The notes below the pieces were generated by a model that was not told where the DNA came from, ran no database searches, and saw only the letters and a program-made list of their open reading frames with translations. DNA of 64,000 nt. It comes from an uncultured delta proteobacterium. GTDB taxonomy: Bacteria > Desulfobacterota > Binatia > UBA9968. This document shows, in pieces, positions 12,638-15,260 of this stretch (position 1 is the first letter of the stretch; each line of letters begins with the position of its first letter). The stretch lies in the NCBI GenBank assembly GCA_963760795.1, contig CAVXEP010000010.1, positions 1-64,000 of the forward strand, written 5' to 3'. The translations under genes and the position numbers were made by a program.

Positions 12638-13459
12638 TCAGCTTGTCATTCCGAGGCTGGTCGGCAGAGTCGTGAGGTCGGCCTGCACATGCTTGATGCC
12701 GGGAATCGCTTCAATGTAGGTGACGACTTGCCGTGCGGTAATCCATTCCGGCACAGTCCCAGTGACAAAAATATCGCCCTCATTGACTTTGACCTCGACC
12801 CGCACCTGAGACAGGTCTTCAGCTAGCGCTAAGGTGGCGCGAACTCGCGATGCCAGCGCGAAGTTTTCAAACGCTTGCTTCGAGGCTTGGGTCATTTGAT
12901 AATCCGGCGCATGGGCCGCAGCGACGATCAATTGTTTCGCCGTCGCCACGCTCATATGGCCAAGATTGACCACCAAGTCGTAGCGGCTGGCATCGCGCCA
13001 ATCGGCGCCGAACATGCCTTGGAGCCGGCGCGTGCGCGCCTTATCGACTTCATCGACGTAGCGCCGCGCGGCGATTTCATTGAGCTTGTGACGCGCGCGC
13101 ACTTGCTCGACGCGCATTTCCATCGGTGCCGTGAGCAAGACTTTGAGAACATGCTGGAACTTGGGAATGAGCTCGTGACCCAGGTGACCGTGATAGACGA
13201 TGCCATGATCACGGGCGAGCTCGCAAAACGCTGCTTGCAAAGCGATGCGATAAGGGTCGAGATTGCGCGTGAAGGTCGCCCACCAACTCGGTTCTCGCTC
13301 GACGATTTCGTTGAGTTTGGATTCTGGGATGCCGTACTGCAAGCTGGCCTGAACCAGCACTTCGCGGTCGACAGGGCGGTAACCCAACGCCTGTGCCACA
13401 CTATCGCCCAACTCTTCGCCGCTGCCTGAAGCGCCCTGATAGATTGTGATGATTTGCAT
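12638..13459 (-). CDS. Cytidylate kinase-like protein with a C-terminal BON-like domain
   Basis: IITI...GSG N-terminus, VYHGH, DASRYDLVVN; C-terminal VEVKVNEGDIFVTG...IPGIKHV. Confidence 0.75.
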   Translation of the reverse strand: MQIITIYQGASGSGEELGDSVAQALGYRPVDREVLVQASLQYGIPESKLNEIVEREPSWWATFTRNLDPYRIALQAAFCELARDHGIVYHGHLGHELIPKFQHVLKVLLTAPMEMRVEQVRARHKLNEIAARRYVDEVDKARTRRLQGMFGADWRDASRYDLVVNLGHMSVATAKQLIVAAAHAPDYQMTQASKQAFENFALASRVRATLALAEDLSQVRVEVKVNEGDIFVTGTVPEWITARQVVTYIEAIPGIKHVQADLTTLPTSLGMTS

Positions 13460-13548: not shown

Positions 13549-14037
13549 TCACTGTGCCAGACCCCTTGGCAAGACGAGCCCTTCTCTAAACGCCTGGGCC
13601 GCCTCTTCTTCGAACAGTGGCCCCACCACTTCGACGGGGTGAGTGCCTCTGGCCAGCACCTCGGCGCAGTGTTCGAATAGTTGCTCCGAATGCTGGCCGA
13701 CCAGTTGTCTCAGGCGGGCGTTGCTGAGACCGAAGACGACGCGGCCCACGCCGCTCCAGAATATCGCACCGGCGCACATCGGGCAGGGCTCGGCATTGAC
13801 GTAGAGCGTGCAATGGCCCAGCAAGTGGCGGGGAAATTGCCGCGACGCCTGGGCGAGCAGCCTGGTTTCGGCGTGGCTGGTGCAGTCATGGGTGGCGTGT
13901 TTGGCGTTTTCCGCCTCGATTAGAATTCTGCCGCGATTGCTTACCAACACCGCGCCAAACGGCCGATCGCCATGATCGCGCGCGCGGTCGGCGACCATCA
14001 AGGCATAGCGCAGATAGCGATGATCCGCTTCTAGCAT
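13549..14037 (-). CDS. Nucleoside/nucleobase deaminase (TadA/GuaD-like)
   Basis: PFGAVLV, HAE, EPCPMC zinc motifs. Confidence 0.9.
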   Translation of the reverse strand: MLEADHRYLRYALMVADRARDHGDRPFGAVLVSNRGRILIEAENAKHATHDCTSHAETRLLAQASRQFPRHLLGHCTLYVNAEPCPMCAGAIFWSGVGRVVFGLSNARLRQLVGQHSEQLFEHCAEVLARGTHPVEVVGPLFEEEAAQAFREGLVLPRGLAQ

Positions 14038-14107
14038 AATCTTCCCCTGATCCTTACCGCTGCTATTAAAACTGCCCAGCGCCGGACCGAAACTGGTTGG
14101 CGCGGCG

Positions 14108-14146
14108 AAAAATGACAAGGGCGTCCTTCGCAGAAGGACGCCCTTG
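14108..14146 (-). terminator. Intrinsic terminator-like hairpin upstream of the deaminase
   Basis: Perfect 14-bp stem CAAGGGCGTCCTTC/GAAGGACGCCCTTG followed by TCATTTTT on the minus strand. Confidence 0.7.
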
Positions 14147-14172
14147 CGGCGCGTATCGCGCACTTAATTGCG

Positions 14173-14259
14173 CTATTTAGTTTGTCCTGATTCCCACTGC
14201 CCACGGTTCCATGGGCTTCGCTCCGGAACGCACTCACGTGAGAGACCTCCGCGTGTCAT
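14173..14259 (-). CDS. Candidate 28-aa small ORF
   Basis: MTRGGLSRECVPERSPWNRGQWESGQTK*; purine-rich upstream; stop lies in the AACTAAATAG motif. Confidence 0.3.
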   Translation of the reverse strand: MTRGGLSRECVPERSPWNRGQWESGQTK

Positions 14260-14334
14260 ACTACCTACGACCTTCCTCACTATGTCGCTAAAGCGACTAT
14301 TTGCCTTCAGGCTATTTAGTTGAGGTCCGGTTAG

Positions 14335-14427
14335 TTAACGCCGCTGCGTGAGACGGGCTAGATGTCCGGAGCGGGAGCCGCCCGCAAACAGCGGGCATAC
14401 GTGGTTCGGTGGATTTCCGTCTTGCAT
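14335..14427 (-). CDS. Candidate 30-aa small ORF with a very strong SD
   Basis: GAAAGGAGGT-7nt-ATG; MQDGNPPNHVCPLFAGGSRSGHLARLTQRR*. Confidence 0.45.
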   Translation of the reverse strand: MQDGNPPNHVCPLFAGGSRSGHLARLTQRR

Positions 14428-14516
14428 AGCAAAGACCTCCTTTCACACCTTGGGGCTTTAATCCGTTTGCGACCCCCTCGCCCCTACGCCTGGCGGCGTT
14501 CAGTGGGTCTGATATC

Positions 14517-14545
14517 GCTCTACGACTGCGCAGTACGAATGTCAA
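14517..14545 (-). promoter_or_regulatory. Candidate sigma70 promoter for the 14.1-14.5 kb unit
   Basis: TTGACA-N17-TAGAGC (perfect -35, weak -10). Confidence 0.4.
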
Positions 14546-14672
14546 GGGCAAAAATACCTTCGGTCAGATCACAGTTGCACCCGCTATGCCACGTCCAACG
14601 CCGTTGACTTCGAGTCGCTGCGGAGTTTTAATTTTTGCCAGTCATTGCTCAAAGTCGCCAACCGGAGACGCT

Positions 14673-15260
14673 ATGCAACGTAAAGTTTTTTTCTGTTGTC
14701 TTGCCTTGCTGTTGATCGTCACCATCCCCGCGCTGAGCGCCGAACCGGAACGGTCGAAGCCGCCGGTGCCGGAAGAACTGTCCGATGCCTGGGAAAGCTT
14801 TCAACGCGCGTTGCACGACTGGGGCGGCCGGTTGTGGGAGCGTGTCGGGCCGCGTGGCGGCCGCGAAGACCGCCCGGTGATCAGCCAGATGCTCAACAAC
14901 AAAGAGGCGCTGGGATTGTCCGCGGATCAAGTACGCCGGTTGGAGCAGCAGCGCGATAATTTCCAGCGCTTGACCATCCGCAACGAAGCGGACTTGCGCA
15001 TCCTGGAGCTCGATATCGCCACCTTGCTCGACAGCGAGCCGGTGGAAATGGCCAAGCTGGAAGCGAAAATGCGCGAGGAAGAAAAGCTCCGCACCGACCT
15101 GCGCATCGCGCGCATCCGCGCCATCGAGCAGGGCAAGGCGCTGCTCAACGCCGAACAAAAGAAAAAATTAACCGAGCTGCCGCGCCAATCGCTGACACTG
15201 CGATGGCCGCCGACAAGTCAAAATCCGTCCGCTACGGAACGAGGACAACCTTCCCGGTAG
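14673..15260 (+). CDS. Spy/CpxP-like periplasmic protein
   Basis: Signal peptide, LGLSADQ and LLNAEQ (LTxxQ-like) motifs, helical. Confidence 0.75.

Follow-up and report, generated by a model that had tools for sequence, protein, structure and literature searches.

The 64,000-nt stretch of DNA analyzed here (hereafter the window; positions 1 to 64,000 of contig CAVXEP010000010.1, from an uncultured delta proteobacterium) carries on its minus strand, at 14545-14106, a self-contained unit that runs from a TTGACA promoter through a structured RNA to a 15-bp terminator. The evidence strongly supports reading the locus as an independent gene, equipped with promoter and terminator, whose RNA is roughly 390-400 nt long, and its main feature, missed in an earlier note that had proposed a novel structured RNA of about 400 nt here, is a mini-open reading frame (mini-ORF), most of which doubles as one strand of a long RNA rod. 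Our preferred reading, to which we give even chances, is that the RNA is both a structured RNA and the messenger of the mini-ORF, that translation and the rod compete, and that the element is a dual-function small RNA (sRNA) gated by its own translation. The parts of the unit are, from the promoter onwards:

14517-14545, minus strand: promoter, with -35 TTGACA (14545-14540), a 17-nt spacer and a -10-like TAGAGC (14522-14517)
14452-14509, minus strand: 5' leader, with helix P1 (14509-14502 / 14478-14471) and hairpin P2 (14499-14486)
14484-14480 / 14456-14452, minus strand: leader pseudoknot GGGGC / GCCCC, just before the Shine-Dalgarno sequence (SD)
14419-14440, minus strand: initiation region, with SD GGAGG (14440-14436) and a hairpin GUCUU (14436-14432) / AAGAC (14423-14419) holding the ATG (14427-14425) in its loop
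14335-14427, minus strand: mini-ORF of 30 codons, MQDGNPPNHVCPLFAGGSRSGHLARLTQRR, with stop TAA at 14337-14335 (from the ORF list)
14404-14412, minus strand: diprolyl motif, codons 6-8, Pro-Pro-Asn (from the comparison of ORF starts)
14383-14396, minus strand: 5' strand of the long-range (LR) helix, GCCCGCUGUUUGCG, ORF nt 32-45, codons 11-15 (from the LR pair table)
14269-14327, minus strand: apical three-way junction, closed by P3, GACCU (14327-14323) / AGGUC (14273-14269)
14312-14303, minus strand: hairpin P3a of the junction, GCC-UGAA-GGC
14297-14284, minus strand: hairpin P3b of the junction, GUCGC-UUUA-GCGAC
within 14269-14327, minus strand: conserved AAGGAAGG, 5' of the 3' strand of P3
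14206-14268, minus strand: 3' arm of the rod, pairing with the 3' part of the ORF (14334-14382) and including 14227-14219 and 14238-14233
14193-14205, minus strand: 3' strand of the LR helix, CGUGGGCAGUGGG
14148-14192, minus strand: A-rich linker, with the second copy of AACTAAATAGC (14182-14172) and the G+C hairpins GCGCA/UGCGC (14173-14158) and GCGCG..CGCGC
14106-14147, minus strand: intrinsic terminator, with a 15-bp stem (14147-14115), a loop of 3 and the tail CATTTTT (CAUUUUU in the RNA)

The case for translation comes from relatives of the element. The ORF is present in 52 of 53 elements, the last (L043) being cut by the end of its contig and left out of the ORF counts; it is mostly 24-33 codons long and yields 51 unique peptides. 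AAGGAGG is kept in all relatives, 51 of 52 unique sequences have the SD core at a distance of 4-10 nt from the ATG, and all five pairs of the 5-bp hairpin that presents the ATG are changed on both sides among relatives (alignment A4). Across 45 unique ORF starts, Pro is always encoded by codons 6 and 7, whose first and second positions have zero entropy and whose third positions have 1.13 and 1.38 bits, respectively; 36 of these starts have D or E as codon 3, with a variable third position, and 39 have G, D or N as codon 8. Conserved amino acids with varying codons are thus read here as a signature of translation, and the search for an RNA-level explanation of CCNCCN found none, the sole candidate partner (a GGU upstream) lacking covariation and being missing from the short-leader clades. 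Together, these patterns strongly support peptide-level selection on the SD, the ATG and the first eight codons (M-x-D/E-x-x-P-P-G/D/N), which would imply that ribosomes load and read at least that far.

Broadly speaking, the peptides are hydrophilic (median grand average of hydropathy, GRAVY, -0.87; longest hydrophobic run of 5 residues or fewer in the 51 peptides), and they carry Pro-Pro at residues 6-7 in 48 of 51 cases, followed by G (22), D (16) or N (4), i.e., by one of these three in 42 of 51. The cited passages of PMC4176338 describe diprolyl stalling when Asp or Ala precedes the prolines and/or Trp, Asp, Asn or Gly follows them, and its relief by EF-P; since G, D and N follow Pro-Pro here as in those contexts, the motif is probably of the EF-P-dependent type. 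Pfam and NCBIfam gave no match for the peptides, and no other protein database was searched with a 30-residue query, which is too short for power. In 42 of 51 ORFs the stop codon precedes the junction strand CCUC by 3-19 nt; in 2 it comes much earlier and in 7 it lies beyond that strand. Stops occur in two frames just before the junction (window 14328-14340: TAA at 14337-14335 and again 4 nt later; TAA and TAG in other elements), and a UAG abutting the P3 strand is kept in relatives even when out of frame; termination before the junction may be enforced in any frame. A second small frame (MTRGG.., from 14257) was considered and rejected as coding, because in the alignment it is open in close relatives but shortened or without a start in others.

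The second half of the argument is the fold. Sequences found by BLASTN (12-13) were used to build two covariance models, R1 for the 3' domain and R2 for the 5' domain. The comparison of relatives strongly supports a predicted structure in which the ORF, from nt 32 on, is one strand of a long imperfect rod closed by the LR helix and capped by the three-way junction. In the window, 14395-14383 pairs with 14193-14205, ~190 nt downstream, over 13 bp (13-14 bp in the family). Codons 11-13 read NGC CCG CNG: GCCCGC is invariant at the nucleotide level, and starts at ORF nt 32 in 43 of 44 sequences, although the encoded residues differ, codon 11 giving S, R, G or C and codon 13 giving L, R, Q or P. 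One LR position is UA in 19 sequences, AU in 5, CG in 4, GC in 2 and UG in 4, and several pair types occur at LR positions 7, 9, 10, 11 and 13 (LR pair table, from which four sequences whose best duplex lay elsewhere were left out). When each 5' strand was set, with equal freedom, against the whole 130-nt distal region of every sequence, cognate LR duplexes averaged -21.77 kcal/mol vs. -19.29 +/- 0.35 kcal/mol for permuted ones (0/5000 permutations; 48 unique sequences). For the duplex between the two rod arms, the corresponding values were -35.54 vs. -27.02 +/- 0.74 kcal/mol (0/5000; 39 unique sequences, with five in which P3 was not found by pattern left out). At the apex, the paired cells in alignment A5 (model R1, 53 sequences) amount to 96.8% for P3, 97.4% for P3a and 95.5% for P3b, and covariation over all five R1 helices is 0.347 vs. 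0.131 in shuffled alignments (0/500), falling to 0.059 or less when the structure is slid. The fold belongs to the minus strand, because G-U pairs are frequent in its helices and the plus strand would have C-A mismatches in their place. Overall, the RNA between the -10 and the terminator is ~400 nt of G+C-rich, self-complementary sequence, and its fold is better than that of shuffled sequences (-165.3 vs. -142.5 +/- 6.6 kcal/mol; z = -3.47; 0/100 shuffles as good).

Nearly all of the items that the earlier note listed are in the sequence where it placed them, and comparison with relatives separates the conserved ones from the rest. Of the three nested pairs it proposed, the 9-bp pair 14373-14365 / 14227-14219 (CGCTCCGGA / TCCGGAGCG) and the 6-bp pair 14352-14347 / 14238-14233 (CTCACG / CGTGAG) are exact complements and part of the rod supported across relatives. 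The third, GACCTC (14327-14322) with GAGGTC (14249-14244), is complementary in this genome but is not the conserved pairing: family-wide, the partner of GACCU (14327-14323) is AGGUC (14273-14269) inside AAGGAAGGUC. Its three local hairpins are all present in the single-sequence fold, but only GTCGC/GCGAC is conserved with covariation, whereas GCCCGC/GCGGGC and CCCATGG/CCGTGGG compete with the better-conserved LR helix. These two are mutually exclusive with LR and unconserved family-wide, and LR is within the single-sequence minimum free energy (MFE) structure of 34 of 44 relatives, but not of the window RNA. For the proposed switch, in which GACCUC would pair either with a downstream GAGGUC or with the SD-overlapping GAGGUC (14439-14434), the complementarity to the latter stands, both segments being invariant; the downstream GAGGUC is unconserved, and covariation is unsupportive, with the pairing of the SD region and the P3 5' strand scoring -10.25 vs. 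-9.94 +/- 0.28 when permuted (706/5000 permutations reach the cognate value). The exact 11-nt repeat AACTAAATAGC is indeed found at 14321-14311 and 14182-14172 (its 10-mer occurs twice in the window, with 0.04 expected), the second 11-nt copy being kept only in the closest relatives. As a motif dispersed through the genome the repeat was rejected: the 6.58-Mb genome has three copies of the 11-mer in all, and the element accounts for two.

Could this simply be an ordinary messenger for a small protein of 24-33 residues, whose leader, pairing between coding region and 3' untranslated region (UTR), and terminator set only mRNA stability and translation rate? The peptide-level conservation of SD, ATG and N-terminal octapeptide fits such a messenger, and one clade keeps the whole 26-codon ORF length, a similar C-terminus (..AAGGSK) and an in-frame UAG. 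However, most of the conserved information is at the RNA level: ~220 nt past the stop are conserved with covariation, and within the ORF nucleotides are kept where amino acids vary, while frameshifts and truncations of the C-terminus are tolerated and no protein family matches. We therefore consider an ordinary messenger a real possibility, though rather an unlikely one.

Upstream of the ORF, the pseudoknotted leader is found in 32 of 50 loci (model R2). In alignment A4 (31 distinct rows), 92.6% of its cells are paired, with a covariation of 0.271 vs. 0.179 in shuffled alignments (0/500); P1 has 8 bp, four of them changed on both sides, and the two pseudoknot strands change length together (cognate -13.35 vs. 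permuted -12.04 +/- 0.26; 0/5000). The remaining loci have different, shorter structured leaders, which still wrap the SD or the ATG in a hairpin, so the leader is best seen as variable equipment. The parts that stay constant across the family are the promoter, SD and ATG, M-x-D/E-x-x-P-P-G/D/N, LR at nt 32 together with rod and junction, and the terminator along with a small G+C hairpin. A riboswitch was rejected as an explanation: the pseudoknotted leader is replaced in other loci, precedes the mini-ORF alone and has no Rfam match.

The unit is bounded on both sides. The exact TTGACA that the earlier note had read as a promoter is present upstream of the element in 52/52 unique relatives, together with an A/T-rich stretch in their alignment, and transcription probably starts close to 14510. 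The TTGACA/TAGAGC pair was not called in a consensus promoter scan, as the -10 hexamer is without its final T. On the plus strand, opposite leader and promoter, there is an open frame of 81 codons (14362-14607), and some relatives have like antisense frames; since the sequence upstream of TTGACA is unconserved, we take it for a chance frame in G+C-rich DNA. At the other end, the terminal hairpin and U-tract proposed in front of a nucleoside deaminase are confirmed, with 15 pairs at 14147-14115; compensatory changes in the stem were seen among 12 relatives (GC to AU in 6, CG to UA in 4), and a GGCGC..GCGCC hairpin precedes the terminator in the relatives listed.

RNA from the element is found in public sequencing data. 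An index of public sequencing runs lists 20 runs with the element (14 studies, on soil, rhizosphere and mine drainage); of these runs, six are RNA libraries, five of them very small (9, 15, 22, 30 and 67 million letters). Its presence in libraries of this size hints at high abundance, although level cannot be read from contigs. Contigs from four RNA runs of four studies were compared with 13800-14900: within the unit their cover is limited to 14147-14498, and contigs of 329 nt (14173-14498) and 321 nt (14173-14490) are nearly all element. The only other cover is a separate contig over the deaminase, at a depth of 3.3, in a run where pieces of the element reach depths of 13-106. Stretches without RNA contig cover (14503-14900 and 14022-14132) are no evidence of absence. 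In the Logan contigs of run X13, Illumina adaptor letters abut 14497 and 14147, so library fragments ended at these positions, the former within hairpin P2 and the latter at the first base of the terminator stem; the two ends could be processing sites or artefacts. Thus, RNA of the element is present in RNA libraries and unbridged to its neighbours, a weak hint of a discrete, abundant RNA. For the transcript that the earlier note expected from about 14510 to 14105, these contigs supply the RNA at 14147-14498, and neither its strand nor its ends.

How might ORF and rod work together? The mRNA enters the ribosome about 13-14 nt downstream of the P site. With Pro7 in the P site (ORF nt 19-21), LR would begin, at nt 32, about 13-14 nt downstream, and the leading edge of a ribosome slowed at Pro-Pro-Gly/Asp/Asn would then stand at the foot of LR and rod. 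Reading on would mean unzipping ~70 nt of pairing up to the junction, the usual end of translation, so that translation and the folded rod would exclude each other. The speed at which the pause is resolved would decide whether the rod opens, with EF-P, prolyl-tRNA supply or initiation through the structured leader as candidate inputs, and the frequency with which 3' arm and junction become exposed would follow from the rate of escape or initiation. Opening would free the 3' arm, AAGGAAGG and the junction elements, and might change binding in trans (of other RNAs or a protein) or the decay of the RNA itself. With regard to a leader-peptide attenuator, PP-G/D/N lies just upstream of LR, and LR and the two local hairpins, which exclude each other, are 4.5 kcal/mol apart in this RNA, the local hairpins being unconserved family-wide. 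It is tempting to go further and speculate on a free-standing sensor of translation elongation, in which PP-G/D/N parks the ribosome before LR, EF-P or prolyl-tRNA decides on rod opening and the RNA acts in trans; as a specific mechanism, we regard this as unlikely.

Several points weigh against a dual-function sRNA gated by its own translation. The stall, the EF-P dependence, the conformational switch and a trans target are all steps that we infer, and the window RNA itself prefers the two local hairpins, LR having to be forced at the cost noted above. The C-terminal two thirds of the peptide are poorly conserved, and the ORF is shifted or truncated in the close relatives G019, G022 and G013a (two frameshifts and one premature stop), so the peptide itself may be unimportant; in addition, the end of the ORF lies far from the junction in 9 of 51 cases. 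Because the sequences in alignments A4 and A5 are related and were fitted to the structures of the models, the shuffle statistics overstate the structural support. The metatranscriptome contigs give no strand, no true ends and no level, and come from RNA runs only. Finally, several genomes reported as 98-100% complete give no R1 match, and the element is no housekeeping RNA, since it is unfound in about half of the genomes of its family.

A purely non-coding RNA (sRNA, protein sponge or 6S-like rod) with an incidental ORF, close to what the earlier note had suggested, would account for the conserved rod-like fold, the apparent abundance and the purine-rich GGA-type motifs (AAGGAGG, AAGGAAGG), and RF00013 finds no 6S RNA in this genome (the model detects only 5 of 14 control genomes). 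Such an RNA, however, would not be expected to vary the third positions of two invariant Pro codons, to keep D or E as its third codon, or to have an invariant ATG with an SD 4-10 nt away, and the element is, unlike housekeeping 6S, unfound in about half of the related genomes and duplicated in four. There is also no Rfam 6S match in the region even at E <= 10, and 6S RNA as such was rejected on the lack of an RF00013 match in region or genome and on the patchy occurrence. Because the RNA appears to carry a translated mini-ORF within its rod, a pure non-coding sRNA or protein sponge is too simple, and we hold it to be very unlikely. tmRNA was rejected as well: ARAGORN found nothing in the window, the ORF has an SD and ATG, and the tmRNA of the genome is elsewhere (contig C27, 69196-69548, 194 bits).

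Beyond 6S, no known family was recognized. Rfam 15 at gathering thresholds gave 0 matches over the whole window, and at E <= 10 the region 13900-14750 gave two chance matches alone, each falling on the hairpin of the terminator (P11 at E 0.16, opposite strand; mir-9447 at E 8.4). A description of such an RNA was found neither in Creative Commons papers of PubMed Central nor in bioRxiv, although supplementary files might list such motifs. The claim of a novel, structured and independently transcribed RNA is thus supported, the covariation test that the earlier note called for having been run on the relatives collected, with support for rod, LR and junction.

To what extent does the element depend on its neighbours? 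Gene neighbours vary among the 53 loci, none is universal, and the downstream gene is convergent in some, so the unit stands alone; a conserved neighbour was accordingly rejected as a functional clue. The commonest neighbour is a divergent gene for a periplasmic Metal_resist/Spy-like protein, in the same position in 14 of 53 loci. In the window, the divergent upstream gene (14586-15260, plus strand) codes for a protein that looks secreted and matches Metal_resist (Spy/CpxP-like) weakly, at E 4.5e-4, which is below the Pfam cut-off.

The remaining role proposed in the earlier note, an attenuator, would make the element a cis-acting leader for the deaminase and the cytidylate-kinase-like/BON genes, controlled by conditional read-through of the terminator. 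The dCMP_cyt_deam_1 deaminase does lie on the same strand, its ATG (14037) 69 nt past the terminator end, and a deaminase follows in 8 loci, with the kinase-like gene nearby in 10; at the paralogous locus L009, the element runs, without its 3' arm, straight into the kinase-like gene. These 8 are out of 53, however, and most loci have a different or convergent downstream gene behind an equally strong terminator, so the element is no deaminase attenuator; the RNA contigs, which stop before the terminator, and the separate low-depth contig over the deaminase are a weak hint in the same direction. Overall, we regard a cis-acting leader as highly improbable. In genome G023, locus L009 is the second of two copies, and its stretch at about 1500-1780 is homologous to 14280-14510 of the window: it keeps promoter, 5' domain, mini-ORF, P3 5' strand and P3a, lacks the whole 3' arm and the terminator, and joins the ribosome-binding site of a Cytidylate_kin2/BON gene, which in the window lies two genes downstream (12638-13459). 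At this locus alone, the element may serve as a leader.

The element is restricted in distribution. By BLASTN, the stretch was found in 12 of 41 related genomes (the genome of the window, G000, included), all of the same genus. R1 gave matches in 12 of 31 genomes of the genus and in 47 of 123 genomes of the order, spanning 19 of 27 genera; by family, these were 45 of 89 in the family of the window and 1 of 5 in another, while a third gave 0 of 28. When the class was sampled evenly, six genomes (G000 among them) had an R1 match, all from the first two families, and 132 sampled genomes from 16 other families of the class gave 0 matches. In each genome no more than a few dozen first-look candidates were scored, and many of the genomes are incomplete, so "not found" differs from "absent" in these counts. 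Two copies occur in four genomes (G003, G013, G023 and G086), and the copy in genome G025 is a diverged one. Unpublished genomes enter some tallies (G082 and G093 in the order-wide count, G004 in the BLASTN count), G093 (locus L041) being also one row in the alignment, ORF, pairing and peptide counts; no claim depends on them alone. The G082 match is not in the alignments, and L013, a weak 38-nt match in G004, was left out of all of them.

A pattern scan with one genome per species gave 30 matches, 26 of which were confirmed by R1; the 4 others fit a rough estimate of ~3.5 chance matches, which is our own and no tool output. Confirmed records are mostly titled as Deltaproteobacteria, Thermodesulfobacteriota, Candidatus Binatia or Syntrophobacter(aceae) metagenome-assembled genomes (MAGs). 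Three loci with a complete element, L087, L096 and L089, are titled Verrucomicrobiia, Candidatus Acidiferrales and Candidatus Udaeobacter, respectively, whereas delta-proteobacterial or Binatia labels stand on all the other confirmed records; this points to noisy labels or wrongly binned contigs more than to a broader distribution. A phage or mobile origin was rejected, the one pattern match in viral contigs being unconfirmed by R1.

Patchy distribution and occasional duplication would also suit a type I toxin-antitoxin-like system, i.e., a stable, folded mRNA for a small toxic peptide, silenced by long-range structure and an antisense RNA, and a highly structured small-ORF mRNA with long-range pairing is what such a system would offer. 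However, the peptides are hydrophilic (median GRAVY as given above) and their C-terminus is unconserved, and no antisense promoter or gene was seen, no search having been aimed at antisense RNA. Of the alternatives weighed here, we find this one the least probable.

The interest of the element does not hang on a single mechanism. Dual-function RNAs are few and come almost all from cultured model bacteria, and the soil lineage here is represented by public records of MAGs only, under Deltaproteobacteria, Thermodesulfobacteriota, Binatia or Syntrophobacter labels. The layout, with a coding region that is also a rod strand and a diprolyl motif at a fixed distance before the closing helix, is unusual. 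If the coupling is true, the element would be a compact natural system in which ribosome pausing and mRNA structure gate each other, and possibly a read-out of EF-P or proline status unwired to a neighbour gene. Even with the mechanism wrong, it makes a well-defined new family for RNA databases and a lineage marker in soil transcriptomes.

Among known systems, the nearest kind is the dual-function sRNA and the nearest working principle that of the proline-codon leader ORFs mgtL and mgtP; the element is a member of neither, because it has no sequence or model match to them, no known trans target and no cis-controlled gene. RNAIII/hld and SgrS/SgrT are dual-function small RNAs. In the passages cited here, SR1/SR1P, AzuCR and VcdRP are each an independent transcript that combines a small ORF with a structured RNA (PMC12612679, PMC12310071, PMC8915982, PMC8672173). 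As far as those passages go, the element shares with them a transcript of a few hundred nt, an own promoter and intrinsic terminator, and an ORF of ~26-43 codons next to conserved structure. Its independence as a transcript is seen in its own promoter and terminator and in RNA contigs confined to the unit, and the sign that its ORF is translated is a comparative one (synonymous variation of the Pro codons, invariant ATG, SD spacing). In contrast to them, it has no sequence or Rfam kinship, its ORF is one strand of the structure over ~70 nt, only the first eight codons look peptide-constrained, and no base-pairing target is known.

Other compact RNAs resemble it in single respects. The mRNAs of type I toxins (hok, tisB, aapA1) are compact and stable, with long-range pairing governing access to the small ORF, whereas the peptide here is hydrophilic and the initiation region is not buried by a long-range helix. 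With 6S RNA, which is roughly half as long, the element shares a likely abundance and the dominance of a long imperfect rod, but its apical three-way junction and putatively translated ORF set it apart, as do the many relatives in which it is missing and the lack of an RF00013 match.

The working principle is closest to Salmonella mgtA (mgtL) and mgtCBR (mgtP), for which the cited passages describe proline-codon leader ORFs read out through EF-P (PMC6460261; see also PMC3641672, PMC5299641). On that description, the element would share with them a very short ORF in which proline codons set the speed of the ribosome and which overlaps alternative RNA helices. The mgtL and mgtP leaders, in contrast, belong to long mRNAs and act in cis, whereas the element here ends at a strong terminator, without a constant downstream gene. 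Overall, it would work like a leader-peptide switch detached from any downstream gene; and if the elongation sensor were true, it would be a leader-peptide attenuator turned into a regulator in its own right.

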